From Phyllosticta citribraziliensis (lineage: Eukaryota), in assembly GCF_038025025.1 (NCBI RefSeq), contig NW_027117344.1, positions 1,240,001 to 1,304,000 on the forward strand: 64,000 bases of DNA, read 5' to 3'. Both the position numbers and the translations under genes were made by a program. This document shows, one piece after another, positions 17,688-37,600 of this stretch; the first letter of the stretch is position 1, and every line of letters begins with the position of its first letter. The notes beneath the pieces are model-generated. The model had not been told where the DNA came from. It searched no databases and saw only the letters and a program-made list of their open reading frames with translations.

Positions 17688-20209
17688 ATGGCCTCGACGG
17701 GCGTCGATCTCCCGCCCAAGCGATCGCCATCCTTGGGAGGCGTTCCGGACGACGAAAAGAAAATTGGCGGCGGCATCGCTATCTCGCCGGAGAGCGCATC
17801 GCTGCAGATAGGCGGCTCTGGCGACCATACGCAGCGCAGGCTCAAGCCTAGACACATCCAACTGATTGGGTAAGTCGCGTTGTGTTCCAGAGCTCCCAGT
17901 CCAAATGAAGAAGAGTGTGGAAAAGAAAAGAGACGTCACAGTGGGCACCGAAAGAATATCATATCATGTACTGCGGTTGGATCCAGGAGGCAGTCAGTCA
18001 ACACCAAGGCTGCGCCTAGGGAGCTGGCGTTTCTCTCGACACCCATTGAGACGTCCGCGAGATGAAAAAGGATTGCGACGAGAAGAACGCAGAGAAAGAT
18101 TCAAATTGCTAACGCCTCGATAGCATTGGTGGAACCATTGGTACGGCGCTGTACGTGCAAATCGGCAAAGGACTCATGAACGGAGGTCCCGCGAGCTTGT
18201 TCCTCGCCTTCACAATATGGTACGTTTACTCCAAGGTCGCGGGCTAGCAGATCTACTCCATTGGATGAATTCATGTGGAGAATGCATTCGTCGCGAGGAT
18301 ATGATGACCGCACTAGCCACAATTAGGCAATCATCCAACTCTCCATCCACACGAAAGATCAAAGCCCAAGAAGCTAACCTTTTGAAGGTGCTCGTTTATC
18401 TATTGTGTGACAAGCTCCGTGGCAGAGCTTGTGACTTACCTGCCAATCAGCTCGCCTTTTGTCAGGTTCGCTAGTCGATACGTTGACTCCGCTTTCGGCT
18501 TCGCAGCGGGATGGAACTTTTTCGCTTTCGAAGCCTTATTAGTCCCCTTTGAGGTATGTCGTTGATCTTGTCGCTTGAATGGCCTGTATACTGATCATTC
18601 TTTCAGATTGTGGCCTGTAATTTGATCATTCACTACTGGTCGGACGTAGTGCCTGCTGGTGGTGTCATTGCTATCATCATTGTGCTGTACGGGTACGTGC
18701 CTGGTCGAGTTCCTCTCCTTTGCTCATATTTTGAATGGCGGAGCTGACCAATGGTAGATTTATCAATATTCTGGCTGTCCAATGGTACGGAGAGACCGAG
18801 TTCTGGACCGCTCTATTCAAGGTGCTTCTTGCCATTGGGCTGATTCTTTTCACCTTCATCTCAATGCTCGGCGGCAATCCCCAAGGCGACCGCTATGGCT
18901 TCAGGTAAGTAGAAGACACCACGGTCTTAGCGAGACAAGTCACTGACGTCTTTGTCCCAGGTACTGGCGCGATCCCGGCGCATTCACAACCCTCTACTAC
19001 GATGGAAACTTAGGACGCTTCCTCGGCTTCCTTCAATGCCTGATCCAAGCCTCCTTTGCCATCGCCGGGCCAGACTACGTTAGTATGGCAGCCGGGGAAG
19101 CCGAGAACCCGCGTGTTGTCATGCCGCGGGCGTACAAAGCCGTCTTCTACCGGCTAACGTCCTTCTTCGTGCTGGGCGCCCTCTGCGTCGGCATCAACGT
19201 GCCGTACGATGACCCGGAAATGAAGGCGGCCTTCACCAATGGCGAGCCCGGCGCCGCCGCGTCGCCCTACGTCGTGGCCATGAACCGCCTCGGCATCAAG
19301 GTGCTCCCCGACATTGTCAACGCCATGGTGCTGACGGCGGCTTTCTCCGCCGGCAACAGCTACGTCTACTGCGCGTCGCGTTCGCTGTACGGCATGTCGC
19401 TCGAGGGCAAGGCGCCCAAGTTCTTGCGCAAGTGCACACGCAACGGAGTTCCGATTTACTGCGTCTTGGTCGTGCTGGCCATTTCGCTCCTGTCGTTTCT
19501 ACAGGTGACTAACAAGACGGCAGAGGTGCTGCAGTGAGTTCCCCTTTTGACCTTGGCTTTAAATGCTGCTGACATTGATGGGCGCAGGTGGTTCATCAAC
19601 CTGATCACTGCTAGCCAGCTGATAAACTTCTCCGTCATGTGTGCCACGTACCTCTGCTTTAGACGCGCGCTTCAGAAGCAGGGCATCAGCAGAGACAGTC
19701 TCCCGTACAAGGGGTGGGGCCAGCCGTATGTCGCTTACTACGGCTTTGCCGGTACCTTTGTCATGACGTTCGTGGGGGGCTACACGGTATTCCTGCCCGG
19801 CCAGTGGGACACCACCTCATTCTTCTTCTCGTAAGTGTCGACTCGAATCCACCAATGTTGGGTTGCGCCTTTGGACTGACGGACGGCGCGGCAGCTACAC
19901 CATGGTGGGCGTGTTTCCCCTGCTCTACATCGGCTGGAAACTGTTCCACAAGACGACCTTCATCAAGAGCGAAGACGTCGATCTGTTTGAGAATCTGGAC
20001 GAGATTGAAGAGTACCATCGAAATTATGTGGAGACGCCGCCAAAGTGAGTTTGGTCCCCTTGATCGATGCGCTCTAGTGCGGTGCTGCGTTAGCACCGTA
20101 CATGCACGTAGTTGGGCGCAACTGCCGAAGTACCGCTACGTAATCTAGTGCTGACCCGTTTTGTTCTAGGAACGCGTTCGACAAGTGGTTCAACTGGCTC
20201 TTCAGCTGA
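17688..20209 (+). CDS. Amino-acid permease (YAT/APC family, AGP2-like)
   Basis: RRLKPRHIQLIG|IGGTIGTALYVQIG, YGETEFW, AGEAENPR, LTAAFSAGNSYVYCASRSLYGMSLEGKAPKFL, LPYKGWGQPY; about 8 GT-AG introns; ends NAFDKWFNWLFS*. Confidence 0.93.
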
Positions 20210-20819
20210 AACCAACCAATGGGACGCCGCGACTATTATAGATGCTTTCTTTGGTCGGTCGCATGGGAGACGGCGGGCCGCCCTCGCGCGTGCGGCGCGC
20301 AGAAGCGCCATCGGCGCTCTTGTTTGGGTCGTCATGCGGCTGCAGGCATACCTTATGCTTTTTTGGCAGCGCTCCTAAAGACGCCCATAACGCCGTCGCA
20401 GTGCCTTGGTAAGAAACTCTTTTATTCGGGATCGGCGGCGGGGGATATTTTTGGGTTTGGCGAGCGCGCCGTGGAGGTGGTGGGAGAGGCTGCAATGCAA
20501 CAGCGGTTGGATTCTCCTAAATGACCCAATAAAATAGATGATTTCACATTTTCCTCGCCGTGGATTCCCACGATTGGCCATTGGTGGGACGATTTTGGAT
20601 TTTCCAGATCGCTGGGTTGTGTTGTGTCTTGTGGTTGTGCCGCGGTCAGACAGCCGCAACAAGCATTGCGCAACAAATGGCGTCACACACGAGTCGTGGT
20701 TGTTTCTAAATGGCCTTTTGCACCGCAATGTAAATGATACCCTCTGGCACGGCTGCAGCGTAGAGAGCAGCCGTCTACTACTACAGTCACGGAGCATTCG
20801 TCTGCTACCATAGTCACGC

Positions 20820-21639
20820 CTAGGGAGCATCCGTTCGCCCCTGCAGATTGACCTGGGGTATCATTGATTTCGACATAAACAGTGCGGGTGTGAGGGGGGC
20901 TGGCCCTGGCATCCTTCTTTCTACCATCGCTCCACCTTTTCCCACATATCGACCACACTGATGCCGACTCAGCTCCGGTGATAATTCTGCATTGGAAAGA
21001 CCCACCTTGCGGTGCTGTGCATATAGGGCGTCCATCTGCCGAGGCGGTTCGTCTTCTTCTTCCTTCTTGGAGAAGAGTGTTTTGTGCTTCAACGACATCA
21101 TAAAAGACGCCGCCTTCCATGGTGCACTGAGCTGGCAAACCCTTGAATCAGAGTTTCCACTCACTTGTCCGCGATTTCTTCCTCATCCTGGGCCTCCTCC
21201 TCCTCCTGGGATTCCGTTGTGTCGACGTTGTTGAGCCTCTTCCTTCTGTCTTGGGTGGCGGTGATGCTCCCTGGCAATTGTCTACCCCAGGAGAACCGCT
21301 CTTCTGCACAAACGAGCTTTCGCCGTCCTTGTGTGCTGATGCGTTGTTCGCGGGCTGAGCTTCTTGATGGTGTCGAGGAGTGTCAGTCGTCGCTGTGGAT
21401 CTTGGTTCCTGCTCTCTATGCTCGTGCGAGTCTGCGCCATACTGGTTTGCCAACGTGCTCTCGACACGATTTTCCTCTTGACCGCCTTGAGTCTCTGGTG
21501 TTCTACCAGCGTCCTGTTCCCCTTGCCCGCTCTGCTCATCTGAGCATTTGTTTTAACCGAGAGATCTCCATCCTGATACATCGAAGAGACTCGATTGTCC
21601 TCGCTCTCTCTCATTTGGAATCTTTGATCTTGGTGGCAT
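20820..21639 (-). CDS. Possible multi-exon orphan gene (unresolved)
   Basis: ATG 21639 (MPPRSKIPNER); donor-like GTATCA, GTGAGT and GTGGGT sites; charged protein-like segments (TTESQEEEEAQDEEEIADK; FSKKEEEDEPPRQMDALYAQHRK). I could not build a single clean spliced frame. Confidence 0.25.
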
Positions 21640-24600
21640 GAATTGAGCCGGGAGAGTGGGCGTTAATCAGGGAGACGACGTAGTTGAGTGCCAGTGGTTG
21701 TGGTCTGTACGTGAGAGACTGTACTGCAATTGGAGGGCACGATCGTAGGGAACAACAACAGCATTACCGTCGGGTAGGTCATCAAGACTGGTAGAGTAAA
21801 CAGTCTCCGTTGTCACTATCCTGGTGAGTAAGCAACGGTAGTTTTTCTTGGTCGACCATGCTCTTGCAAGCGTATCCTGAATCAGTAGTGAAGCAAGCAA
21901 TGCTATGGCAGGGGCAGAAACGAAACTACGGCTGTAGCATCCGCATAATATCCACTGCAGACTGGCTCGACGCATCTCTTCTTTGGTAGATCCTTTACGC
22001 CGACATTCCTTTCCAGTATTCCTTTCTTCAGTCGCAGGGAGTCGGGGTCTTATCACCGGGAAAATGGGCATGTACAGCTGTTCTATCGAACTCAGTCCAA
22101 GTGTTCACGGACTACCACATTTGCGCCAGGGAGCTGTAGTCTGCTCTGCAGCTAAAGCTAGAGGGCATCATTTCTTTCGAGACCCATGGTGGCACGGCAA
22201 CGCCGGGGACGATGAGGGGAGCCGCGTGAGAGGTTGACTTTCTCATCCAGGTGTGGTGGTAACGAAACGCTTCGTCCTCCGTCCGTGAAGTCCGAGAAGC
22301 CTTCACGAATGGCCTGTTTGAATGATCGAACCCACAGCGAGCGAGCACGGTGGACGACAAGGGTCGGGGCGTATGTGGCGCTCACAGCGGGCCGGCGGAG
22401 CAAGAAGGAGAGGCGCGGAGGGGCGGCGGTGGGCAGCAGAGAAGAAATGAGAGGAGCGGGGATCAGAAAAAATCCGAGTGTCTGAGAAGATGACGATGGC
22501 CGAAATTTTGATGGTTTAGGCTTGCCACGGGCAGGGCAGGGCGAGAGGACGGGGAAAAAGAGGAACCGCTGCGACGATCCGCAACTTCAAACGTCTGCCA
22601 AAAGTGTGGCTGCTGGGCGACAGCCATGGGGGGGACAAAGGCGCGGGTGCCAGGGCTGCAGCTGTGTGTTTGACATCCCAGCGGGCCGGCGTCGCTGACG
22701 ACGGTGGTGGTGTTTGGTGGAGGTGTTTGGTGGAGGTGGTCGGGTGGTGGTCGATGTCAGGACGCTACCTATGTATGTAGCTAGTGTAGCTTGCGCGCCG
22801 CGCGCGAGACGCGTCGTCCTTGTCCGGCTCCGTAAGCGTCATGCCATTCATGGCTGAGACGAGACGCCCGCCGCCCTCAGTCTCACTTCGCTCTCTGTCT
22901 CTTCCTCTTCCGCTTCCTCTCTCTCTCTTGTTCTCCCTCAGACAACACGCCGCCGCCATGGCCGTTGAGCCCCTGGCCCACCCCCGGCTGCTCCGCTAAG
23001 CCTGTTCAAGCCCCGTGGCAGCGGCAGGTCGCCTGCTTCTTCTCTCGCCTGCCCCGCTGCTCAACACAGTTTGGTGGCTCCGACGTGCTGCTGAACTATC
23101 GCGGGCAGCTTCGCAGCGGGGGACGGGCCAAGGTGGCCAAAAAAGCTAACGCCCTACACTACTTATCAGACTTCCTGCGGGCCAAGATGCCCAACTATGC
23201 ACTCTTTTTTGGTTCTCCACCAAACGACAAGGGTTGGGCGGTGCTGTTTTTAGCATCAACGGGTGCGAAGGCCTGTTGTCGTCATGGGCGGCGAGCGGGC
23301 CAGTTGAGACGAATGGCGGTGCGGTATATCGACATTGACCTGTGCCACGGAAGAAGTCAGAGGTCACGCCCGTTTGCAGGACGGGACCCGACTGCAGTCA
23401 GTACTGAACTACCACCTTGTCGCCGTCATGTCGTGTGCCACACCTCTCACGCAACCCGTGTTTTGCACCACAGGCCGCCGGCCGTCATTCAGACATGTCT
23501 GCTGCCGTCTTTTCCCCCACGCAAAACACGACCAGAGACCAACATTGAAGCAATCGAGGCTGCTGCAAGGAGGGCAACGGAAATGGCAATGACAGGTCAA
23601 ACATCATGTCGTGGTCAGACATGGTGAGAGCAGGGGAAAAGCTCGACCTCTCCCCAACCACGCCGCCTCATCTTCTGCACGCCACACACGGCACCAAGTC
23701 AACAAGTTCAAACGTCGTCGGGTCGTGGGATGCACTTCCGGTTTGCTGCGCGGAAGACGGAGCGCATGAATGGGTGGAGTTCGGGACGCCGTCCCGCCGT
23801 CGCCGCCCATCGACGACTGGACTAGACACCAACCCAAACCTTGGAAACACACTGCTGCACTCTCTGCTGCTTGGGCCCTCTTGCGACGCAACGGGCCACC
23901 AAGCTGCACGGCTGCCCTGCCCTGCTGCTTTGCTGGCTGCATCTCCTCTCTTCCGCGCCTGGGCAAAATGGCCTCTGCTGGCCTTTTTGCATTGTGCGCC
24001 ATGCTGCTTTGCGTCCGCCGACGAAGAGCTCTTGGTCCATGATTTGCGCGCGAGCACGCATCCCTTTCCAATCCCGGCTTCTCCGTCGTGTTTGATCCAT
24101 GTTCGCCCGGTGGAACTTGCGCTGCTGGCCATGGTCCTTCGCGGACCCTGTTGCTGGCGTCGTTGTTGTTGATCTGACAAGGGGAGAGCGAAAGGGAGGG
24201 GGCCAAAATCTGTCTGTATGCACATGCCCGTTTGGATCGTGATCCCCGCAGACCGATTCCGTCAGATACGCGAGCAGAAAAAAAGCAAACAAAGGTGGGT
24301 GTGGGTGGGTTGTTGCGAATGCTTTGCTTTTTCTCGCCGTCTCACTACTCTATTTCGACCGCACCTTCTCTTCTCGATTCATCCACTGTTTGGGCGGTGA
24401 TACCAGACAGCAGACAGCATCATGGAAATGACAGGTGGACAGGAGAACATCTGCGAAAGACACCAACGTCTGCCATGTTTTCCCAGGTGCCCACCGTCTT
24501 CTATCCTTCTATCCCTTTCTCGTTCTATTATGGAAATTCCTTGCGGCTCGTTGGTTCCTCTCCACTGCCCGAAATGCGGGCGGAAAGAATATGACGCTGT

Positions 24601-25024
24601 CTCTCTACCACGTCGATTTTCCTTGTCAAATCATCTGCTTTCTCCCGACATCTCCCATGAGCCAGAAAGACGAGAGCAAACAGAAATGTCTGACTTTCGC
24701 TGTCAAAGGGCATGCGGATACTTGGCAAGAGATGCCTCGCTGTATATCAAGGCTTCGCCGGCTGGAAATGACGCTCCCTGGTAGTCGTACTTACTTCGGC
24801 GACCCTTCTCCTCGATACGCTGAACACCGCCACGTTAGCAATTCGCTTTGTGCATTCTCCTTCCACGTCTCGAAGACATTCGTCTACAGCTCTGCATCGT
24901 CATGTGGATACAACGTGTACAAAAAGCGACCAGCGCAACAATGGCCTTGTTCGCTCTGCTCGCCAGTATAAAATTTCTCAGCCTCCCATCCAAGGATCAT
25001 TTTCCTCACCACAGCTCTGACAAC

Positions 25025-25396
25025 ATGGCTAACAACAACATCCACAAAACCAAGCACGAGGACGACTTCGATCTCGTGACGAACCAGGAGGTCCAAGAGA
25101 TTCGGCAGCAGCAAACCGCCCGCGCGGTGTTGGGAATCCGTCCCACCGCCGCCGGGGCCCGATCTTCGAGCAACCGCTTTCTGAAGAAAGCCTTGCGCTC
25201 TGTGGGGTCAACTATGGCTAGCGGTGCAAAGAAGGTGGTCCAGAAGATGGCCGACGGCAAGAAGTCTCCGCAGGACCCGACGCCCGAGCAGGCTCTCTGT
25301 CCTTGTTTGGCTGACCCGGTCAACGGGTGGATGTCATGCAAGATTTACGAGCACGTCCGTGCCAAGCTGAAGAAGAAGGGCATTGTCGCGGCTTAG
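25025..25396 (+). CDS. Orphan microprotein family A, copy 1 (AIM-like DDFDLV + CPC..GW..C..H)
   Basis: TATAAAA at ~24967, caacATG; MANNNIHKTKHEDDFDLVTNQEVQEIR...QDPTPEQALCPCLADPVNGWMSCKIYEHVRAKLKK; paralogous motifs at 28.6 and 30.0 kb. Confidence 0.75.
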   Translation: MANNNIHKTKHEDDFDLVTNQEVQEIRQQQTARAVLGIRPTAAGARSSSNRFLKKALRSVGSTMASGAKKVVQKMADGKKSPQDPTPEQALCPCLADPVNGWMSCKIYEHVRAKLKKKGIVAA

Positions 25397-26101
25397 GCGC
25401 CTTGCCCGCCTGCCTGCCTGCCTGCTGCTGCTGCTGCTGCTGTGGTGGACATGTCAGTCAAGAGCACTTGGGCCACGCTCCGAGCGAGTGAAAGTGGCCT
25501 CTGTTCCAAATTCTGGGACAGCCGTTACTAGGTAAGTTAAACAATGCTGATTCTCTGACGAATTCCGTGCTTCAGACTCCTTTGTGTATGTGACGAGATT
25601 TCCTGAACTGACAACATTTGTGGTTTCGTAGCTCACGGTGATGACTCCTTCCAACCGAAAGACGGGCAACAAAATGGTCAGCCGACTGCCTGCTCACTGT
25701 ATAAACCATGGACCGGTCCTATCAACTGCAAACGGATTTGATGGTCCCTGACGCACTCGATACGCTCGACTTGCGCCTGTTGTCAACCAATGTCACCGCG
25801 CCACCACGCTCTCAGATGCAACCCCGAGGCGCTTGAACGCTCCGATCCGTACAGCGACAGGGTACTGTACGCGCTGGACGGACAACGCATATGCTTCGAT
25901 CTCCAAAGCGGGCTGTGCCCATCGCTCCATCCATTGTTCGACAATATGGACTTTGTCAGACGCCATTGTTCACTAACGACTTGCATTATATATCGCAACC
26001 GTCAGAAAAAGCAACGAGGAACGATGTCCTTGTATACTCCAAATTCCGGTATATATCCTTGTGGGCTCCGCTCTATATTTTCCGTACCAAACACAGCAAA
26101 G

Positions 26102-26284
26102 ATGCCTTCCCAGGACAAGCCCCTCCAAAACGACAAGCAGCCGGTCAAGATTGACCAGGACGCCTATCAGATTGTCATGCCCCCCGGAACCAGTCCCGCC
26201 CCGAAGACTTCCAGCAGTCTCACGATGTTCAACATGAAGGTCAAAGCGAAGAAGTTGATTCGAAAGCTCAAGGGACAGACCTGA
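26102..26284 (+). CDS. Orphan microprotein family B, copy 1 (60 aa)
   Basis: TATATA at ~26050; MPSQDKPLQNDKQPVKIDQDAYQIVM...MFNMKVKAKKLIRKLKGQT*; aligns with the copies at 27178 and 27691. Confidence 0.7.
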   Translation: MPSQDKPLQNDKQPVKIDQDAYQIVMPPGTSPAPKTSSSLTMFNMKVKAKKLIRKLKGQT

Positions 26285-26520
26285 AATCATGTGGTAGCCG
26301 GCCGTCGAGAGGGCTCTTTGCATGATTGTGACGGGTGAGGTGGATGGGGTGTGCGGGAGAAGGACCAGTCAAAATTCAGCCTGGACTTGTCATGAGTGGC
26401 TCAATTTGGTCCTTCTCCCCAACAAGGGGTGAGTTAATCAAATCCATTCCCACAGATTCAGAGTGTTCTTCCATATCCGTGATCAGTGATTCTTGTCCAA
26501 GCATCGCTAACGTAACTTTC

Positions 26521-26721
26521 CACAGCAAGGACAACGAGATCGAGAAGACGTCCCAGAGCGTGCTCATCGACGACGAGGAGCAATGACACGACAATTTCGA
26601 GATTGTCATGAACCAAGAGGCCGAGTCCACGCGGGACCGCAAGGCCAATGTCAAAGTCAAGACCAAGAGGGCGCTTGGTTCCACCGCAAACACGGTGGAG
26701 GTGCTGAAGAAGTCGACTTGA
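26521..26721 (+). pseudogene. Family B copy 2, disrupted
   Basis: HSKDNEIEKTSQSVLIDDEEQ*HDNFEIVMNQEAESTRDRKANVKVKTKRAL: in-frame TGA at 26584-26586, no ATG at the homologous start, same 3' flank as the other copies. Confidence 0.7.
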
Positions 26722-27177
26722 GCCCCTGTGGAAGCTGACCACCTGGCAGGCTCTTTACAGGGGGTATTACGGCTGGAATGTCTGCAGCGGCGTGGGAGAG
26801 GGATCATTCAAGCACTTGAGCCGCCGGAACTCATTACGACTGGCTCAAAATGGCCCATCTCCTGTATATTTCTGCAATTTAAGGAGGCGCAGGCCGCTCA
26901 CCAAAGGATGGACAGTCGAAAAATGGCCGTGTTCGCTCCGCTTTCCAGTATATAACTCCGCGGTCTCCCCCTTATATTTTCCTGGCCAAGCACCACCACT
27001 GAGATGTCTAGGAAGATGAGGATGGGGAGGATGAGGATTGGGTCGTTATTCCAAAAATCAAGAAATCGCTTTACCAGCTCCTGCGCGATGGCAGTGGTCG
27101 GCATTCCTCACCGCCGCCGCATGTCCGTCCACACTGCGACCTTACGAGTCAAAACGGTGCCGACGCCAGCCGCTGAT

Positions 27178-27573
27178 ATGGCCTCTCCGAACATGAAAAT
27201 GCTCAAAGACGACAAGAAACGTGTGGAAGTCGGCCAGGGCACATTCGAGGTCGTCATGAACCAGGACTCCCGGGCTACTCAGGACAGAAATTCCGCCAAG
27301 CCAACTGCTGGAGTCGTCCGGGATCTTCTGGTATTTAACTTGAAGGTCAAAGCAAAGAGAACCCTCCGCTTGCTGAAAAAGCAGTACAGGCCCTCACTTA
27401 GCCTGAACTCTTGTGAGAACTCGCCTTTTGGAAGGCTCTTTGCAGGGGTTGAGACGGCCAAGAGAGACGCGGTTACGGAGGTGTGGGAGAGGACTGGTCA
27501 AGAAATTCTGGCGCCCGATAATCAGCACGAGTGGCTCAATGTGGTTTCTCTCCCGCCTACTTTTACAACTTGA
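27178..27573 (+). CDS. Family B copy 3, with C-terminal extension from stop loss
   Basis: MASPNMKMLKDDKKRVEVGQGTFEVVMNQDSRATQDRNSAKPTAGVVRDLLVFNLKVKAKRTLRLLKKQY...; CAG TAC where copy 4 has CAG TAG. Confidence 0.65.
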   Translation: MASPNMKMLKDDKKRVEVGQGTFEVVMNQDSRATQDRNSAKPTAGVVRDLLVFNLKVKAKRTLRLLKKQYRPSLSLNSCENSPFGRLFAGVETAKRDAVTEVWERTGQEILAPDNQHEWLNVVSLPPTFTT

Positions 27574-27690
27574 AGGACGTCCAGGCCGCCCATGGAAAGA
27601 TGAGTAGACTAGAAAGTGGCTAGTTCGCGATGCTCTCCGATATATAATTCCTTCGCCTCCTCCTAATATTTTCTATCCACCACCGCTACA

Positions 27691-27912
27691 ATGGCTTCCA
27701 AGAACACGAACAACGACGCAGCCATGCTAAAAAATGACAAGAAAGCGTTCCAGATCGACAAGGAAGCTTTCGAGATCGTCATGAACGACGAACCACAGAA
27801 GACTCGGGACCGCAAGGCCCGCAAGCCAGATGCCGGAGTTTCTAGGGAGCTCGCCATCTTCGGCCTCAAGGTCAGGGCCAAAAAGATTCTACGCTCGCTC
27901 GGAAAGCAGTAG
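27691..27912 (+). CDS. Family B copy 4 (73 aa)
   Basis: TATATAA at ~27641, ctacaATG; MASKNTNNDAAMLKNDKKAFQIDKEAFEIVMNDEPQKTRDRKARKPDAGVSRELAIFGLKVRAKKILRSLGKQ*. Confidence 0.75.
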   Translation: MASKNTNNDAAMLKNDKKAFQIDKEAFEIVMNDEPQKTRDRKARKPDAGVSRELAIFGLKVRAKKILRSLGKQ

Positions 27913-28576
27913 AAAGGTTCAAACATGACTTGGAACCCTGCAAGAGCTGACCGTTTGACTGGCTCTTTGCAGCTGTTGTGGACGGCTGGGTTGCTTCCGG
28001 TGCGGAGAGGGGCCAGTCCTGAATTTCGGCCGCCGGAAACTCATCACGAGCGGCTCAATACGGTCCCTTTCCAGAGATGTGCCAGGTTAGTCAATTCAAT
28101 CAATCCTTTTCCCAGAAACTCCGAATGTCTTTCAGTATTTCTGAGGGATGAAACGAATGAAGTGGCGCTGTGGCTAGCATTTGGGGACAGCCACATGACC
28201 GAGAAACCCTGCTAAGTACATATTTCGATCATGATAAGCAACACTTGAAAGAAGTGGAGCTTCAATACTCTGATCTATGCCACGAACACCAACACATCCA
28301 GCAATGACACGAAAAGAACTTCAGTTTGGTTTGGCTGACAAGCCATGGGCAGTCCCGCGAACATTGTTCAGAAATGTTGACCTTGTTGATTCCAGAGACT
28401 TCCCTTCTCTCAGACTTCATGGTCAAGCGGCATCAGCATTGTTGATGTAGACTGGCACGGTCAAGCTACATTTGAAGCGTCAAGCAGCGCACAATGGGCT
28501 TGTTTGCTTCGCAAGTTTGCCTTATATTCCGTCGCTGTCGAGCCTTTTGGTCACCTTTCTATTTAGCAAGACCACC

Positions 28577-28935
28577 ATGGCGCCTCAAGACTCCCGGAAA
28601 ACCTCTCAACAGGAGAAGGAGCTGGAGGAATCGTTCGAGCAGATTGACGAGCTCGAGATGCAAGAAATCCGGCGTCAGGACGAATGCGAGCCTTTCGAGA
28701 CCATCTCCGACGCCGAGGCTCAGGAGGTGCGAGCAGAAGAGCGCAGCGATAGGTAAAATCTCTGGGGAGCAAGGCCAAGCAAGCTCTTCTTCCAAAGAAG
28801 GACCCGACTCCGGAGGAGCTCCACTGCCCCTGCTGGAGCGTTCCCGAGGGCGGCTGGAGGTACTGCTTTGTCGAATCGCATGTGCGGGCGGCTATCAAGC
28901 GCATCGAAGAAGGCCCCAAGACGCAGCCCAGGTAG
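28577..28935 (+). pseudogene. Family A copy 2, frameshifted (or sequencing indel)
   Basis: accaccATG MAPQDSRK..EESFEQIDELEMQEIRRQDECEPFETISDAEAQEVRAEERSDR* (stop 28754-28756); another frame from 28753 continues VKSLGSKAKQALLPKKDPTPEELHCPCWSVPEGGWRYCFVESHVRAAIKRIEEGPKTQPR*. Confidence 0.7.
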
Positions 28936-29943
28936 ACCGACTCTATTAAGCCCAAAGGGTCCCCAGTGCTATTTTGATGGGGGCTCGATGGCCATAATCA
29001 ACAATTTCCCTGACTTCATGTTTATGTTGAGATGCTTTGAGTGTGAGAAGTGACAAATACCATAATGAAATCCTCCTTTCAACCTCCTTGAATGGATAGC
29101 TCTTTTTCTGTTTCTTACCCCTGAAATGTCAAGTCATTTCCAGAACTGGTTGTGAAAGCCATTCCATACGCAAGAGCAGATTTAGAGGGAAAGGTAGAAT
29201 AGTCATGCCATTCGACGAACTGTAACCAGGGAGCATCCGAGCGGTGTCAAGTCCCCTTGAGCAACATGGAATGGGAGGATTCGGCCATACACCAAAGAGT
29301 GGCTTTGTTCATGCTATTCTTTGAGGCGAGATCCTGAAGTCGATGGCTCATCATTATCCTCAAACAATGCTGCACAAATTAGACTGAACCACGCTCCATT
29401 GAGCCAGCGTTGTTCGCACAAGTTGGATTCTTTGTGTTTACCCCTGACCATCCGACTTGCAGTAGTCATCTCTCACACATCAATATCTCCTTCCGCTGAT
29501 GTCGACGATCCTTATCGGTACCTTGGACCAATGCCAGATTTCACAATTTTTATGTGGTCGGCGTCGCCAAAGAGCCCACCTGCCGGTTGGAGAGAGAAGT
29601 CACCTGGGAAGGAAGGACGAAGCCCGCCGAGACGATCCACTCATGGACATCCACCATGTCAACCTCCCACCTCCCACACTCATTGTCTTCCACAAATCTC
29701 ATTGCCATCGCTATCACATCCATCCATTCGCTACGTTAGCAAACGCAAGAGCATTCCGAATCAACCACTCAATCACTTCGGCGCAGAGGCTTAAAAGAGC
29801 CTTTGACGACTTCCAAACTACTTCCAAGTGTTCCAGGATCCTGCTCCACGCACGAAACGCGACCAGGCACAAGGGGACATGTACGTGCGAAGCCACTGTC
29901 GACATGCTCTGCGCAGTCAGCTCAGAAGACCCCAGCAGCCAAG

Positions 29944-30591
29944 ATGTCGAGCCCGTCGGGCAGGTCGCGCTCGTCGAGCTCGTCGAGCGTTTGCTCGGAA
30001 ATGATGCATAGTATCATCCTCGACCCCGATCAAAAGCCAGACTTCCTGGTGGACCAGGACTACGACTTCGTCGAGTTATCCGACGGCGACACGCTTCTCG
30101 GCTCCTCCACTGACGACGACGACGACGACGGCCAGCCTGACAAAGAAAGCGACAAGAAGCGGCGGAAAGACACCACAAAATCGGAGAAGTATGATGTCCA
30201 AGCCCACAAGCCCGTCAAGTCCAGCAGCAACAGCAAGCAGCTTCTCCCCTCCTCATCCTCTACCACCGAGTGGGACGCCGCGACCGACGCGGAAAACACG
30301 GCATCTAAGTGGGCCGGCGTCTTCCACGGCATTGGCAGCCTCACAGCAGAAAGCGACGACTTCGACCACATCGACGCAACCGAGGCGCAGGACGCCACAG
30401 TCGACGAGCGCACGGCACGGATCGAAAAGGCAATGGCGATACAGCGACGCAGGAACGAGCTGCGCAGAATCGCGCCGGCGCCCGAGCAGATTGGGTGTCC
30501 TTGTCTCACCGGTGGGAGGGATGGCTGGAAGGGGTGCCGAGTTCCAGCGCACGTGGAGTTGGGCAGGCTGACGATGGAAAATATTCGCTGA
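29944..30591 (+). CDS. Family A copy 3 (longer, acidic and disordered)
   Basis: MSSPSGRSRSSSSSS..DQDYDFVELSD..SDDFDHIDATEAQD..APAPEQIGCPCLTGGRDGWKGCRVPAHVELGR; shares the C-terminal Cys/His motif with copies 1 and 2. Confidence 0.75.
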   Translation: MSSPSGRSRSSSSSSVCSEMMHSIILDPDQKPDFLVDQDYDFVELSDGDTLLGSSTDDDDDDGQPDKESDKKRRKDTTKSEKYDVQAHKPVKSSSNSKQLLPSSSSTTEWDAATDAENTASKWAGVFHGIGSLTAESDDFDHIDATEAQDATVDERTARIEKAMAIQRRRNELRRIAPAPEQIGCPCLTGGRDGWKGCRVPAHVELGRLTMENIR

Positions 30592-31205
30592 GAAAGTGCA
30601 GATTTGAAGGGGAGTGCCAGGGGTTGCGGCTCGACTCGGATTTGGGTGTCCATCTCGCCAGGCTGCGCAGGAGTCGTCTTTCGTTTGCGCGCTTGCTTAG
30701 TTCGCAGGGCTTTATACCACGAGAGACGCTTTGAGAGAATGGATCGTCGCATTGGATGATTCGGGATTTTACCTCGAGCACATGCCGTCCAGGCTTGATG
30801 ACAAAAGTCGTGGCATACACGACAAGAGGTGAAAGATAGGGGAGCATTCGTAGGCTTTGACTGTTGATTTACGTTGGTCATTGAAGCCACTTCAACTAGA
30901 GACCATCGTACTAGAGCTAGAGAGCATATGAGTGTCGCAAGGGGCATTTACAGGGAGCATTCAAGCCCCCATCCACAAAGCCTCTGATGCAATCATGGCT
31001 TCCGCAAGTCAAAGTCCATGAATGGGCATCGTTTCTGTCTCTTATAGATGGTTGGGTGCTTTGAAGGACTCTAGTACAGAAGCCTGAACTCTCTTTGTTA
31101 GCCACCCGTCAAAGTGTATGATTGCTGCTTCTCTGTGGCTAACTTGGTGTAGTGTGACACTCCCTAGTCTTCTATCCTGGCTAGTTACGGTAGGCTGAAT
31201 GCTCC

Positions 31206-33432
31206 TCATTCATCCTCATCCTCGTCATCACTCCCGAAGATGGCCTTGAAGACCTCATCACCCGCCCTCTGCGCCTCCAGCGCTTCGTTCTTTTCGACAT
31301 CAACCGGCGCATGAGTTGGCAAGCCCACCGCACCCGCAGGGGACGCTTCTTCGCCGACAGGAGCAGCAGCAGATTTGGCGGTCTGCGCCGTCCGAAACGC
31401 AGCAGGAGCATCCCGCAGCATGTCATGGATGGCCGAGTCGGGGATGATGGTGAGGTCGCGCGGGACAGCGGCCGACGATGTGGCAGCGTCGGAATGCTTC
31501 TGCTGCTGCGTCGATTGGTCCGGCTGGACGTTTGACGGCGGCTTGACATTGAAGCGCTTGCAGACCAAGCGGGTCGGGAAGAAGGGCTTGACCTGCCGTG
31601 TCAGAGGGCCGTACATGCCGAGGCGGGCGGCCTGCTCGGCCGGGTCGACAGGAGGCGTCGCCGGCTTGCTGAGGAGGTGGTCCTTTTCCTTCGTCGACTC
31701 GCCCGAACTCGAGGCTGGTTGTGACGACGAAGAGACGAAGCGCGCGGCCATCAGGCCGCTGATGGGCTTGAAGACGTTGGCAGCCTGGGCGAATTCGTTG
31801 AGCTCGCGAACCCACTCGTCAACCGTCACGCCCGCGGGGCGTTCGGGGAGCGCGTCGGCCTGCCCTGCCTTGAGCTCAAGAAAGGCGCGGTAACGAGCGC
31901 GCTTCTGCGCGTCTTCGGCATAAGGCATCCACCCGCTCGTACCGCGATTCAAGGCCGCAGCTGCAATCGATGCATCCAATGCAGGTACGAGGTTCCACAG
32001 CGTTTTGCGCTTCTCGGCATCCGTCTGCTGGGATCCCTCGAAGAACTCGCCGCGCGCGGCGGGTAAGTTATTTTTGCCGGTGGCGGCGGCTATGCGCTCT
32101 CGCGCGGCGGGACTGAGAAAGTCGAATACGGATTTTCCGGGGAGTGCTTGCTCACCGAGAATGGCGGCTCGAGATTTTGCATCCAGCGTGGAGGCTTTTG
32201 CAGCGTCGGCGGTAGATTGGTATGGCGCATCTTCACTCGCCGAAGTCGAACTCTTAGAGCTACTCCAGCCTGGTGGTGGTTGAGGTGGAGCATATTTGCC
32301 ATCGTCGGAAAGAGAGAGCGACTGCGTTGCCAAGACAAATCCATCAAGCGGGAGGCGGCCGTCGTGGCATTTCCGAAAGCCATCAGTCTTTTTACTCTGT
32401 GTCTTTTTTGAGATGAAAACAGGCTTCGTGCCAAGAAGGGGGTTGGCAGAGGCTCCCGATGGCTTAACCTTCTTTTTGGGCTTCTTGTCTCCACCCAAGA
32501 CCCGATTGTAGGAAATTTTGGGACCCATCTCGTAAGGATCCTCCTCATCCGAGCCAGTATCGTTCAAGATACCAACACCAAAGCCACCGCGTTTTGCAGC
32601 CTTTGGGGCTTTTGGTTTGGTTTTCAAAGATCCATTGGAGCTGTTGTCCTCGTCGTCTTCGTCGTCTTTATTCTTGCCGGCCGCATCGACGTTAGACAAG
32701 CGTGCTTCGCCTTCATAGCCCAATCCTTTGTGATCATTTTTGCGGACAAAGGTAATCATGGGCGAGTGTTCAGGCGCGAAGAGATGGGTTTGCTGGTCCG
32801 AGTCTGCATGGGCGGCGTCGTCTGGATCCAGGCGAGCTTTCCGGCGCACTTTGGGGCCAACTCCCTGACCCATCTTCCAGCCCATTTTTTGCAAAAGCTT
32901 GACGCCCATGGTCTCGCCTGTTGTCTTGACCAAACCGAGAAGGGCATCTCGTTTCGACAGGTCGTCCCCGGTGGAACCCAAGCCTGCAAAGTCTCCAGCG
33001 GTCTCGATTTTGCGGGCTTCTTCGGCATCAGCCAAGTCCTCGTCGTCCATGTAATCCTCCGGTCTTTGTTGCTGGGGATTCTTCTGGTCTTTGTGCCTGT
33101 TTGTGCGCGAGGACACAAAGGTGGCAGGCTTCCATCCCTCCTTGGATCCTACAGTATTGAAGTAGCTAGACTAGATGGTAGTTACTGCTCTGACCTTTGG
33201 AGACAATAGGGACACGAGCTTACCCTGCGCTAAAGCCACCAGTGAATGCGCCATGGAGACGCTTCCGGCCGCGTTCATCAGTGACCTCTTGCTTCCAAAG
33301 TGGGACGTATGATCCGTCATCGCGGGTGTTTTCGTCGAGGGGAGGTAGCGGGGTGCCGAACAGGGCGTAAGGCGACTCGTGGCTCTGCAGGTCGGCCTCG
33401 AAGGTGGCGCGCGAGCGTTTGTAGTAGGACAT
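31206..33432 (-). CDS. G-patch domain protein (GPATCH1/TGH-like, DUF1604 N-terminus)
   Basis: [50 protein letters not shown]-patch [20 protein letters not shown]-terminal [11 protein letters not shown]; intron 33223-33166. Confidence 0.92.
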
Positions 33433-33958
33433 GGCGATGGCTAGGTGTCGCGGGCGATGATGTGCAAGGACGCATTGACCGCGGGGAGATGGCGGGGTCC
33501 AGGTGTGGGTGTGGGCGTGGGCGTGGGCGTGAGCAGAGAGGAGAGAGGTGGCATGGTGCAGTGGAGGAGGGAGGTGTCGTCGAAAATGCCGGCAGTCGGC
33601 GCCCTCGCAGCGGGAGAAACGCGGCGCGTCGGAAACGAACAAATAACGACTGTAGTGGTTACTGCTGTGCGAGTATGTAGCAATTTGCCAAGTGGGCGGA
33701 CGCGGTGATGGGGTTTCGAGACCCCTGCAAGACTCGCCGTCAGTTAATGGACGGCAGGGATGGCGAGGTGGGCACGACGTTGACAAGATTTTGGCTTGCA
33801 ATGTCACTGTCAGTCAGTTGCGCTGGTGGCTGTCTGGCTGGCACTGGCCGGCTGGCTGGCTTCAGCACCCACTGCACAGGAACAGGCGGGCGGTGGACTT
33901 CACAATCATCTCGTCCCGTCTCTGTCCGCTCGTCCTCCCATCACCTACCCGTCCATCC

Positions 33959-34155
33959 CATCCATCCATCCATCCATCCATCCATCCAGCCATCCACTCA
34001 GGCGGCGGCGGTACACATCTGCATCTCCGCTGTCCTAATTTCCCATTTCCAGTGCTGCCGAAACATTGTTGCCTCTGTCTCGCTCGCGTCGCCCCGTCCC
34101 GTGTTTGGTCCAGTCCTCCGTCCTCCGGCTCCCTCTCTCTCTCTCTCTCTCTCTC
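33959..34155. repeat. Microsatellites (CATC)n and (CT)n in the divergent G-patch/KIN1 intergenic region
   Basis: CATCCATCCATC run ~33959-33985; CTCTCT run ~34133-34155. Confidence 0.9.
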
Positions 34156-34680
34156 AGGTCCCGTCGTCCAGCTCCCTCTGCAGCCCGAAACACCACCATC
34201 ACCATCAACGCAACTCTTACGCTGCATCTCTTCGTCCTCGTATCGCACGCGTCCGGCAGTCTCGTCGCCTTGCCGCCGCCGCTCGCTGGTCCGCTGCACC
34301 GCTGCCACCTGGCGCCGGCCTTGTACGTAAGCACGGCATTGCGCATGACAGCTTCCGACGCCTAAACAGCTTCGGGCCTCCTCTCCACGTTCCAGGTCGC
34401 AAGCAAACAGACGCGCCCCTCCGACTCCCCTACTCGCTCCGTCTGCGTCCCGGTCCCCGTTTCGCCGTCGACTCCAAACATCCCGTCCAACCCGTGCCTT
34501 TGAAATACCACACCATTCGCAAACGGCCTGCCAGCCGCCGACCGTCAATCGGCGCGTCACTGTGCGGCCCACTTCTTGTGCCGCTGATCTACCCCCCATA
34601 GTGGTTCATGCACCCTCCTCCAACCCTGCGTTAAGCCTTCACTCCGCCCTCATCGCCTGCTTCTCCTTGGCCCCGACATC

Positions 34681-37600
34681 ATGTCCTCGCCGGCCGTCGT
34701 CCACAACTCTTCCGCCGCCCGCCCGACGCGTACCCAGTCCACCGCCGTCCGCTCCACCGCAGCTCCCCCGGCAGCTTCTCCCCATCGCTCCCAGTCCCAA
34801 TCGCACGGCCACTCTCGCCCGAGTCACCCGTCACAGCAGGTCCCGCTGGCAAACAATCCGGTCAAGAGGGAATATGATCAAAAGCTTCCCCCGCGTCGAA
34901 GCGAGTCGAGGGACGGCGCCGCTCCTCAGCCCGACCAGCGCAGCAATTCCCACAACAGACACGCTCGTTATGCACCGGACCCTTCGGCGACAGCTGCTAC
35001 AACAAACGGGACCACTGCTGAACCGCCCCGCCATGCACCGCCAACCAATGCTTCGGGCCGCCGGAGGACCACCATAACAGCTCAAACGGGGCAATGGGCT
35101 TTGGGCAAGACAATAGGCGCTGGTAGCATGGGTAAGGTCAAGTTGGCCAGGAACCTCGAAACTGGGGAACAGGTACGTCCAGCCGCTACGTGTGCGTGTG
35201 CGCACTCACAGTAGTACAAAGCTGACCCTTTGCAGGTGGCGGTCAAGATCGTTCCCCGACAGTCCACCGACGAGCACCGTAATCAGGCGGATCGGGAGAG
35301 GGCCGACCATTCCAAAGAAGTGCGCACTGCAAGGGAAGCGGCCATCATGACTCTGGTGAACCATCCTTATATCTGTGGCATGCGGGATGTGGTCCGCACC
35401 AATTATCATTGGTACATGCTCTGCGAGTATGTCAACGGCGGGCAGATGCTGGACTACATCATCTCCCACGGACGCCTAAAGGAAAAGCAAGCGCGCAAGT
35501 TTGCCCGCCAGATTGCGAGCGCGCTCGATTATTGCCACCGGAATAGCATTGTCCACCGGGACCTCAAGATCGAAAACATTTTGATCAGCAAGACGGGAGA
35601 TATTAAGATTATCGACTTTGGGCTCAGCAACCTGTTCTCCCCGAGGAGCCAACTCAAGACTTTTTGTGGCAGCCTGTACTTTGCTGCGCCGGAGCTGCTC
35701 CAGGCCAAGCAGTATACGGGGCCTGAGGTAGACATTTGGAGTTTTGGCATAGTGTTATATGTCCTCGTTTGTGGCAAAGTCCCATTCGACGATCAAAGCA
35801 TGCCTCAACTACATGCCAAAATCAAAAAGGGACATGTAGAGTATCCACCATGGCTTACAGCAGGTAAGATGGATGAGAGAGCGACAAACGAGCGGTGCTG
35901 ACAAGGTTTGTAGAGTGCAAAAATCTCATCTCGAGAATGCTTGTGACGGACCCCAAGCAACGGTCTCCTCTGGCTGAAATCATGTCGCATCCATGGATAA
36001 CCAAGGGCTTCAACTCGTCACCAGAAAATTTCCTCCCTCCCCGGGAACCGCTGCAGCTTCCTCTTGATCCTCATGTCATTGACAAGATGACTGGGTTCGA
36101 CTTTGGGACTCCAGAGTACATCACGGCGCAGCTCACCAAAATCATTCAATCAGAAGAATACCAGGCCGCAGTCCGCATGGCTGCTCAAAGGGCGCAGGAT
36201 AAGAATCCCGAAACCGAGAAGAAGCGAGGAGTCTTTGACTTTTACAAGCGCCGAAATTCCATGAGCCGGGACACTCTCACCAACTCTTCCTCAGAGCAGC
36301 TCGCCGTTGGGGCAGACCCAGTCAATGCTTTTAGCCCGCTAATTTCTGTGTACTTCCTCGTGCGAGAAAAGCAAGATCGCGAGCGAAAGGAAGAAAACCC
36401 AGGTGGCATGAGCATGCCAAAGATGGCCGGAGAGAAGCCTTTCAAGGTCCCCGACCTGGCGCCGCCCGAGGCAGCACACACCAACGCTTCATCGTACGAG
36501 ATGGCTGGTGAAAAGCCAACTGGCGGCCGGTCACGGCCAAGGGCAAGGACTCATGGTGAAGATGAGGTCACAGACGATCTCAAGAAGATGAACTTGAATG
36601 TTCCCAACCCGGCAAACAACACTCCTCCCGCAGTCATTACTCCTCCTAACGATCCTGCACCTCTCAAAAAGGAAAGCACAGCGGCTGGTTTGCTTCGGCG
36701 GTTCAGCACGCGGCGCCACCGCGACCACATATCTCGCGACAGATCACAGCCGCCACAAGGGCCACCCGAAATCAACGAGCAGCCGGCCAAGGAGGGCTTG
36801 GGATTCCCGTTGCGGAGTTTCTCAGTGCGCAAGGCTCGCGACAGGGCCGCTCAGTCACCGTCTCTGCCCCAGGGCGTGAACGACAACTCGGAACAGCCAG
36901 GGCTGCTCGCACCGCCCAGTCCTGGCATCCACGCCACGCAGAGACTCAAGGGACTCGGCAGATCAACCAGCGTCAATTCGGCTGACATGCGCCGCAAGAC
37001 CATTAGACGAGGTGTTTCTGAAGGACATCAAGAACCGCCGCCCACCAGCGGCTCGGACAAGTCGAGTGTTAGTGGAGCGCGCTCAAGGCCAGTGCCCGAC
37101 ACAGCTTCCGAGGAGGTCGCCGTCGGAGCGCCGCCGAGAAGTGCCCCGGCTGTCAGGACCAAATCCCTTGGCCATGCCCGCAGAGAGAGCATCCAAGCTC
37201 GTCGTGCCAGGCGAGAGCAGGCAATCGAAACCAACGTTCCCGAGGAGACAGATCAAGAAGTTGCCGAGGCAAACGACTCTGCCGGGGAAGGTCGCAACTC
37301 GGAGACGATTAAGCCCGTCTATCTCAAAGGACTTTTCAGCGTGTCGACGACAAGCAGCAAGCCTCTTCCCGTGATTCGTGCGGATCTGATCCGCGTTCTC
37401 AAGCAGCTGGGCGTCGAGTATTGGGAAAGCAAGAGCGGGTTCCAATGCCGCCATGCGCCGAGCATCGATGTACCTGGAAACGAAAACGCGCCGAACCCTC
37501 CAACGAGTCCCAATCAAACTCCAAGTGGCAGCCTTGGTCACAGGCGCAAAATCAGCTTTGGATTGAGGGCTTCGGAGCAACGCGAGCGCGACGAGTTCCG

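Follow-up and report, generated by a model that had tools for sequence, protein, structure and literature searches.

The stretch of DNA considered here, hereafter the window, comprises 64,000 nucleotides (nt) of Phyllosticta citribraziliensis (assembly GCF_038025025.1, contig NW_027117344.1, positions 1,240,001 to 1,304,000). It holds a row of seven co-oriented loci, all on the + strand, in which an initial annotation made from the letters alone had recognised seven orphan microproteins, each carrying a core that resembles the Atg8-interacting motif (AIM), also called the LC3-interacting region (LIR). We find that this region is almost certainly a tandem cluster of one gene family, which is limited to the fungal order Botryosphaeriales. 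The cluster consists of three genes of a long family (at 25025, 28577 and 29944), which is uncharacterised and annotated solely as hypothetical proteins, and of four truncated short copies of these (26102-27912). The co-orientation of the loci was borne out, and all nine of the motifs quoted in that annotation are present, on translation, in + strand frames at their loci. The label of orphan microproteins is wrong for the three long loci, which have homologues in four genera and encode a C-terminal Cys/His module that had been overlooked. The earlier observation was real but mis-framed. In their order along the DNA we refer to the loci as ORF1, units 2 to 5, ORF6 and ORF7 (ORF, open reading frame), and their coordinates are collected in Table 1.

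The long family is small and restricted in its distribution. A profile of the long members finds 14 proteins at E ≤ 0.001 among 1.84 billion representative proteins, and the named family proteins, by exact look-ups, are all 'hypothetical' and come from Phyllosticta (five species), Macrophomina phaseolina, Lasiodiplodia and Neofusicoccum parvum, genera which we take to belong to the Botryosphaeriales. Family members measure 101-253 amino acids (aa). Read from the sequences, the long form is laid out as an acidic N-terminal part, probably disordered, with one or two copies of a short motif, followed by a basic linker and the C-terminal module. This module of about 40 residues has the pattern P-x-P-E-x3-C-P-C-x6-G-W-x2-C-x4-H, then V, in ORF1, in the second frame of ORF6 and in ORF7, and with the family hidden Markov model (HMM), as with a regular expression, the window yields exactly three copies of it. 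Over 16 aligned homologue rows one proline, three cysteines and one histidine are invariant, while the second proline, the glycine and the tryptophan are nearly so; it is this C-x-C…GW..C….H signature that defines the family. Directly before it stands a conserved P-[TS]-P-E (P-A-P-E in ORF7-type proteins), which resembles a proline-directed kinase site and may equally be structural.

Modelled alone with AlphaFold2, the module forms a compact arrangement of four short helices with a mean predicted local distance difference test score (pLDDT) of 83.8, rising to about 90 over residues 11-40. Since three cysteines and one histidine come together in a compact mini-domain, sequence and model suggest that the module binds zinc. 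A fold match for the module was sought in PDB with Foldseek, which returned none, and with VIA wide, which returned nothing at Z ≥ 2 (a search with 46 residues, and therefore of little weight). For the full model, Foldseek gave 0 matches on PDB and VIA wide a best Z of 4.2, on long helices, and a sequence profile search of PDB reached a best E of 0.27. At the curated cut-offs of Pfam there was no match for the seven window products, whose one match lay at E 0.41 (8.8 bits vs a cut-off of 23), nor for the 16 family members, for which five families were touched by one member each, with a best E of 0.035. The ESM Atlas held no usable match for P0009 or P0011.

ORF1 and ORF7 are both intact. The former is the best family HMM match in the window (E 5.8e-46) and has orthologues of 63% identity in P. 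citriasiana and P. citrichinensis, in which the C-terminus is nearly invariant; the latter matches the HMM at E 6.5e-44 and has an orthologue, P0006, of 80% identity as well as the more distant P0014 and P0012. The annotated ORF1 model P0003 (164 aa) and its orthologues P0004 and P0007 begin upstream of the TATA box (24902-25024). The hydrophobic 'MALFALL' of these longer models is encoded by a conserved promoter element, and in unit 4 the same element runs into a stop. Judged from these sequences, the longer start is probably a mis-annotation, and a signal peptide is therefore probably absent. By inspection, none follows any of the TATA-proximal ATGs.

ORF6 is disrupted in this genome. Its first frame carries two motif copies and closes with a TAA, and the basic segment and the module continue in another frame. 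Its orthologues P0009 (P. citrichinensis) and P0008 (P. capitalensis) hold about 30 extra residues (YYKRITD…) at the frame break, and segments related to these are found in Macrophomina and Neofusicoccum also; on this comparison of sequences, ORF6 here has therefore undergone a frame-shifting deletion, which cost it about 30 of the codons present in its orthologues. The basic segments that had been quoted behind the cores do exist, but one of them, KSLGSKAK, is out of frame with the ORF that starts at the ORF6 ATG and ends at 28754-28756. An annotated P. citribraziliensis protein, P0010 (101 aa), equals both ORF6 pieces letter for letter, its model bridging the two frames with a 53-nt intron (28727-28779). 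Among the contig rows listed, this supposed intron is kept in a contig of RNA run X2 (record 7, 28094-29013, 0 gaps). The intron has a weak 5' site (GTGCGA), and no clear branch point was seen in it. The product of ORF6, as far as it can be read from the DNA, is likely a 59-aa protein with two motif copies and without the module. In P. citriasiana, P0027 (386 aa) is a fused gene model that joins the ORF6 and ORF7 orthologues, and in P. capitalensis the ORF1 and ORF6 orthologues have consecutive accession numbers; the long members therefore adjoin in other Phyllosticta too.

The homology of units 2 to 5 extends over their whole length, promoter and 3' flank included; they are spaced 437-691 nt apart and share a DNA identity of 56-67%. 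They are tandem copies of 0.44-0.69 kb that keep the promoter, the motif core and the basic segment, and according to the family HMM the module is absent from all of them. The alignment marks them as old tandem duplicates of a truncated copy, three with open frames and in-frame insertions or deletions, and one dead. The dead copy is unit 3, which had been read as an ORF at 26521. It has no ATG and contains an in-frame TGA (44 codons are open beyond it), and the upstream end of the supposed ORF is the 3' splice site of an intron that, in the unit alignment, takes the place of the unit 3 promoter and start codon. Unit 4 had been given a start at 27178, which is an internal methionine; the first ATG past the TATA box, at 27004, is in frame with it. 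This unit has lost the stop after KKQ, so its ORF runs on through the 3' region. Between the promoter-proximal ATG and the conserved start region it also has an insertion of about 170 nt (27004-27177), which encodes an Arg-rich, acid-free N-terminal extension. Two further readings of the short units were tried and set aside. The 3' flank was considered as a decayed Cys/His module, for which its DNA likeness to the ORF1 module is suggestive by eye, but the spacing differs and the descent is not established. A conserved GGCTCTTTGCAG block was considered as the 3' splice site of an intron whose removal would restore a longer reading frame, but the listed run X1 contig is unbroken over 26525-28085.

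A common promoter ties the short units to the long genes. As had been noticed for some of them, there are TATA boxes 50-58 nt upstream of the ATGs at 25025, 26102, 27691 and 28577. The promoters of units 1, 2, 4, 5 and 6 (i.e., including ORF1 and ORF6) align in an upstream element, the TATA box and an equal spacing to the ATG, the element standing about 10-30 nt before the TATA box in the five units. A pattern search at ≤3 mismatches returns three matches to the element (24938, 26920 and 28491) where 0.01 are expected. The common upstream element suggests, from its sequence, that the five units are co-regulated by one factor, and the common promoter is the best evidence for a shared origin of short and long forms.

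Transcription was assessed with contigs of two public runs (X1 and X2) from two studies, recorded as 'RNA?'. That the contigs are RNA-derived follows from the introns they skip: GT..AG introns in the amino-acid permease and kinase genes on the flanks, and a CT..AC intron in the G-patch gene, which lies on the minus strand. Both runs show depth in all 30 bins of 17500-37400. The region is transcribed: spliced RNA contigs of both studies cover it. Each of the two cluster introns (Table 1) is seen in one contig in each run, and no ORF of at least 30 aa crosses the intron at 25532-25631. Beside the permease gene, the stretch 20170-24900 is likewise covered by RNA contigs and contains a + strand GT..AG intron (joint 23396>23474) in run X2 only; the ORFs of at least 110 aa tested there had no Pfam match.

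Table 1. Features of the cluster, with positions counted from the first letter of the window.
Feature	Position	Strand	Basis or remark
ORF1 upstream promoter element	24938-24956	+	pattern search, repeat family D3
ORF1 TATA box	24967-24973	+	sequence reading, promoter alignment
ORF1, intact long member, 123 aa	25025-25396	+	translation
ORF1 motif FDLVTNQEVQEIR	25067-25105	+	translation
ORF1 C-terminal Cys/His module, after basic linker	from ~25277	+	translation
P-[TS]-P-E before the module (ORF1, ORF6, ORF7)	25277-25291, 28804-28818, 30475-30489		
GT..AG intron, 100 nt, in non-coding transcript between ORF1 and unit 2	25532-25631	+	joint 25528>25629 (cut +3)
Weaker copies of upstream element	near 26021 and 27612	+	alignment of promoters
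Short unit 2, 60-aa ORF	26102-26284	+	core YQIV, no acidic +7, prolines after core
GGCTCTTTRCA block	26312-26322, 26749-26759, 27434-27444, 27961-27971	+	
Predicted 3' hairpin of unit 2, base stem GGGAGARGG/CCNTCTCCC	26355-26419	+	consensus fold
Equivalent predicted hairpins	26794-26863, 27483-27556, 28004-28072	+	consensus fold
ACGASYGGCTCAA block	26392-26404, 26836-26848, 27527-27539, 28046-28058	+	
GT..AG intron, 97 nt, unit 2 3' region to unit 3	26429-26525	+	joint 26427>26525 (cut +1)
Short unit 3, dead copy	26526-26722	+	no ATG; TGA 26584-26586 directly before HDNFEIV
Upstream element copies (unit 4, ORF6)	26920-26938, 28491-28509	+	pattern search
Unit 4 TATA box	26949-26955	+	
Short unit 4, 189-aa ORF	27004-27573	+	core FEVV; first ATG past TATA
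Unit 5 TATA box	27641-27647	+	
Short unit 5, 73-aa ORF	27691-27912	+	core FEIV, Glu +7, Pro +8, basic segment KVRAKKILRSLGKQ
ORF6 first frame, 59 aa, motif copies FEQIDELEMQEIR and FETISDAEAQEVR	28577-28756	+	translation
TAA ending ORF6 first frame	28754-28756	+	
ORF6 continuation in other frame, basic segment and Cys/His module	28753-28935	+	translation
ORF7, intact long member, 215 aa	29944-30591	+	translation
ORF7 N-terminal FVEL site	30067-30078	+	
ORF7 second motif FDHIDATEAQDAT	30361-30399	+	
ORF7 Cys/His module, at C-terminus		+	translation, family HMM

The four-residue core by which the loci were first recognised is, as the initial annotation itself conceded, common by chance. The 111,281 six-frame residues outside the region contain 1330 instances of the bare core [WFY]xx[LIV], or about 12 per 1000 aa, and alone the core therefore carries no meaning. 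Aligned across the family, however, the conserved motif spans about 13 residues and can be written as an acidic flank, [FWY]0, [DE]1, x, [ILV]3, [STD]4, x, x, E7, [AVLIM]8, x, [EQ]10, [IVA]11. At the aligned family site (16 homologue rows from four genera) the aromatic residue at 0 is present in 13 rows, an acidic residue at the next position, X1, in 12, the aliphatic residue at +3 in 14, Asp or Glu at +7 in 14, a hydrophobic residue at +8 in 15 and at +11 in 12, and at least one acid in -3..-1 in 12; positions 0, +3, +7 and (+8 or +11) occur together in 13 of the 16 rows. The aromatic and aliphatic positions are kept together in 13/16 rows and in 9/9 window motifs, and their selective conservation over paralogues and orthologues, on which the earlier argument had rested, is thus upheld; in the short copies most of the helix positions have been lost. 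Glu or Asp stands at +7 in eight of the nine window motifs, and the window loci have between zero and three acids in -4..-1, with none in unit 4. Over the first 30 residues of four ORF1 orthologues only N5, F15, E22, E25, I26, Q29 and Q30 are invariant, and F15, E22, E25 and I26 are motif positions 0, +7, +10 and +11.

The longer pattern [WFY][DE]x[LIV]xxx[DE] has five matches outside the region (111,281 residues) and eight inside it (5,504 + strand residues), and with hydrophobic residues at +8 and +11 in addition it has zero matches outside and four inside; the inside counts come from paralogues and are therefore not independent events. ORF6-type proteins carry two copies of the motif, and ORF7-type proteins an extra N-terminal site, FVEL here and WVDV (P0014) and FVDV (P0012) in the orthologues. 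The GABARAP-interaction motif [W/F]-[V/I]-x-V, in the form given in PMC8727931, describes WVDV and FVDV, but not the FVEL of ORF7, which has leucine at +3. SUMO-interaction motifs and FFAT motifs (two phenylalanines in an acidic tract) were also considered; by inspection the ORF6 and ORF7 cores FEQI, FETI and FDHI fit neither, and neither is family-wide. In an AlphaFold2 model of P0009 (overall predicted template modelling score 0.30), F40-I43 lie in coil and a helix begins at residue 45, i.e., at +5, with residues 41-60 at a pLDDT of about 80.

This arrangement recalls a described way of binding Atg8 proteins. The C-helix mode has Glu or Asp, mainly at +7, in a salt bridge to Arg67/Arg70 of Atg8 proteins, and a hydrophobic residue at +8 or +11 that packs on Atg8 helix 3 (PMC8727931). 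Yeast Atg40 follows the same scheme, and both it and mammalian receptors for autophagy of the endoplasmic reticulum (ER-phagy) pair an acidic X1 with a short helix that follows the AIM (PMC7335187). An unbiased LC3B screen found acids enriched at -1 to -3 and glutamate at X1 and X7 (bioRxiv 10.64898/2026.01.05.697675). Set beside these studies, the motif fits the extended LIR of the literature better than the initial annotation knew. Its sequence signature is a real position-specific match to a well-defined binding mode, which lifts the Atg8 idea well above a chance core, and we regard the candidate extended LIR as a worthwhile but unproven lead. Whether the long members bind Atg8 we put at somewhat below even. 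If they do, the W and L pockets of Atg8 would take up the aromatic and aliphatic residues, its Arg67 would form a salt bridge with the Glu +7 that opens the next helix, and its helix 3 would be packed against by the hydrophobic residues at +8/+11. The C-terminal, putatively zinc-binding module would hold cargo or a partner, which would make the long proteins adaptors or receptors for autophagy that are specific to this lineage.

Several observations weigh against Atg8 binding or against extending it to the whole cluster. The motif is missing in three of the 16 homologues, namely P0015 (proline at 0), P0013 and P0016, and the last two, from Macrophomina and Lasiodiplodia, share only the module; on present sequences the family is defined by the module and not by the motif. 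In P0009 the first ORF6-type motif (F20-I23) falls within a predicted long helix (10-33) and is not extended. Furthermore, [ILV]-[STD]-x-x-E-[hydrophobic] is also the pattern of a generic helix N-cap with a hydrophobic staple, and conservation beyond the core may therefore only mark the start of a helix. The motif could accordingly be the beginning of an amphipathic helix (hydrophobic staple plus capping box) which packs within the protein or an oligomer, or binds some other partner, in a small Cys/His-module protein of unrelated function, which might be regulatory or have to do with metals or redox chemistry. That the motif merely caps a helix or serves another partner is, in our estimate, nearly as likely as Atg8 binding, given the modelled helix of P0009 and a module present in 16/16 rows compared with 13/16 for the motif. 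Sequence-based prediction of LIRs is also unreliable: in the LC3B preprint, no new classifier beat iLIR on a test set of annotated binders and non-binders, and prediction was poor for less enriched peptides (bioRxiv 10.64898/2026.01.05.697675). The aromatic of the family is nearly always Phe, and the same source reports that an F-type consensus peptide binds LC3B more weakly than a W-type one, at about 400 nM vs about 90 nM (bioRxiv 10.64898/2026.01.05.697675). On the other side, helix capping needs none of the acidic flank, the acidic X1 and the aromatic residue, yet these are kept in 12, 12 and 13 of 16 rows, and the doubling of the motif in ORF6-type proteins, together with a different second LIR-like site in ORF7-type ones, fits a docking motif better. 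A complex prediction of ORF1 residues 1-45 against residues 79-123, which asked whether the motif docks on the protein's own module, scored 0.01, which is no verdict and counts neither way. Atg8 could also be met in a host plant, if the proteins were effectors and captured plant ATG8 in the manner of PexRD54. Citrus tissue is a habitat of Phyllosticta species, the FEIV core of the short units is similar to the WEIV of PexRD54, and tandem, fast-evolving, lineage-specific clusters are typical of effectors. We nonetheless consider host-directed effectors very improbable here: the ORFs that start downstream of the TATA boxes have hydrophilic N-termini without a signal peptide on inspection, the sole hydrophobic N-terminus is that of the P0003 model, which overlaps the promoter element and the TATA box, and homologues are found in saprobic and woody-host genera alike.

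The short units call for a separate judgement, and for them we see an even chance that they and the frame-shifted ORF6 are non-functional relics of duplication, with ORF1 and ORF7 the sole working genes here and with transcription stemming from kept promoters or read-through transcripts without a working protein. Such decay would account for a unit without start codon and with an in-frame stop, for a frame-shifted ORF6 whose RNA contig retains the stretch that annotators removed as an intron, and for two introns of the untranslated-region type that join units into longer transcripts. None of the short ORFs is annotated and no database homologue was found for them (for unit 5 the search covered proteins of 40-128 aa), and their DNA identity (0.56-0.67) is not above that of the flanks (0.50-0.75). 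The hydrophobic residues at +8/+11 are mostly wanting, with units 4 and 5 lacking them and unit 5 having a proline at +8, and unit 2 is without the acidic +7. Protein homology between short and long forms is also weak (hhalign E 0.053, probability 1%, with FEIVMNDE aligned with FDLVTNQE), so that their kinship rests mainly on the similarity of promoter DNA, and the contigs give neither transcript ends nor the strand of unspliced parts. Against the relic reading, units 2, 4 and 5 stay open over 60-189 codons at about 35-45% DNA divergence, and in each of them an ATG follows the unit's own TATA box and the shared upstream element at a constant spacing. The long gaps inside the ORFs (15, 27, 27, 30 and 42 nt) are multiples of three, unlike those downstream (1, 4 and 5 nt). 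Mismatches by codon phase number 107/73/134 (over six non-independent pairs) where the 3' flank is flat, and the pairwise ratio of non-synonymous to synonymous change (dN/dS) is 0.20-0.37, with dS saturated. That the short copies are functional proteins at all is in our view doubtful; we read them either as weakly competing for the same Atg8 site or as relics in decay. The best-conserved DNA of the short units lies outside the ORFs, in the GGCTCTTTRCA and ACGASYGGCTCAA blocks, which in the window occur only in these four units, and it is conceivable, if unlikely, that the units act as RNA through a pair of 3' hairpins, the small ORF being incidental. Both blocks fall in predicted hairpins, the second of which lies upstream of each 3' hairpin around the GGCTCTTTRCA block. 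In the consensus fold 89.7% of cells are paired, vs 42-58% with slid partners, six pairs are changed on both sides (4/500 shuffles reach this), and the fold contains many G-U pairs, so that it is + strand-specific. These figures come, however, from just four related sequences, and related rows can beat shuffles without any structure; the single-sequence folds have z-scores of -2.5, -1.9, -0.5 and -2.3, the third no better than shuffles. Rfam gave no match at E ≤ 1 over 20000-31500, and the coding-type substitution patterns in the ORFs also speak against a role as RNA.

More speculatively, an order-specific Atg8-adaptor family with an extended LIR and a new zinc-type cargo module might have repeatedly spawned LIR-only microproteins (units 2, 4, 5 and the frame-shifted ORF6), co-regulated through the shared promoter element and the 3' hairpins; as built-in inhibitors, these would compete for the Atg8 docking site. 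We offer this as an improbable scenario. Receptors of selective autophagy are often confined to one lineage and difficult to detect by homology. Should the motif prove real, the cluster would supply a new receptor or adaptor family with a previously undescribed Cys/His module, as well as a natural set of paralogues, some full-length and some motif-only, in which the origin and decay of Atg8 ligands could be followed. Should it have another role, there is still a defined, transcribed and order-restricted family with a new small domain. Many pathogens that attack the trunks, fruits and leaves of woody crops belong to the Botryosphaeriales. Among the 10 papers listed, of 42 on Phyllosticta with autophagy, none concerns the family by its title or abstract.

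Among known systems, the closest likeness would be to the ligands that combine a LIR core with a C-helix (FYCO1, the giant ankyrins B/G, FAM134B, SEC62, yeast Atg40 and Ede1). The family shares with them the aromatic residue at 0 and the aliphatic one at +3, often an acidic X1 and an acidic N-terminal flank, and Glu or Asp at +7 at the start of a helix with a hydrophobic residue at +8 or +11. The LC3B preprint prints peptides of FYCO1 and ANK2 (bioRxiv 10.64898/2026.01.05.697675), and side by side FYCO1 FDIITDEELCQIQ is similar to FDVITDNEVREIQ of the P. citrichinensis ORF1 orthologue; the FYCO1 peptide and the ORF1 orthologues agree, as printed there, at 0, 1, 3, 4, 7 and 11, and partly elsewhere. 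Unlike these ligands, the family has no homology to them outside the motif and no membrane or motor domain, and its members are very small (101-253 aa), with the motif close to the N-terminus and a Cys/His module at the other end. That module, in turn, is like CCCH-type zinc fingers and small zinc knuckles in having three cysteines and one histidine within about 20 residues and a compact modelled mini-domain, but differs from them in its spacing, C-x-C-x10-C-x4-H, in the short helices of its model and in having no curated Pfam match.

PexRD54, an RXLR effector of Phytophthora infestans, comes from a filamentous, plant-associated organism as well, and its WEIV is one residue away from the FEIV of units 3 and 5. 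Its AIM is this C-terminal WEIV, which binds potato ATG8CL with a Kd of 388 nM (PMC5025708). PexRD54 is secreted and has WY domains with the AIM at the extreme C-terminus, whereas the cluster proteins have no signal peptide or RXLR motif and carry an N-terminal motif that is followed by a helix. A different parallel is with microProteins, i.e., shortened paralogues which retain an interaction motif and so titrate away whatever partner the full-length protein has. Units 2, 4 and 5 and the 59-aa ORF6 product similarly keep the motif part without the C-terminal module of the long paralogues, and their descent is supported by the promoter DNA match and an alignable motif, with a weak profile-profile match (E 0.053); in contrast to microProteins, the short copies are known from sequence alone and may simply be decaying. 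If LIR-only microproteins of this kind do exist, they would be the natural counterpart of the engineered ankyrin-derived peptides that block Atg8.

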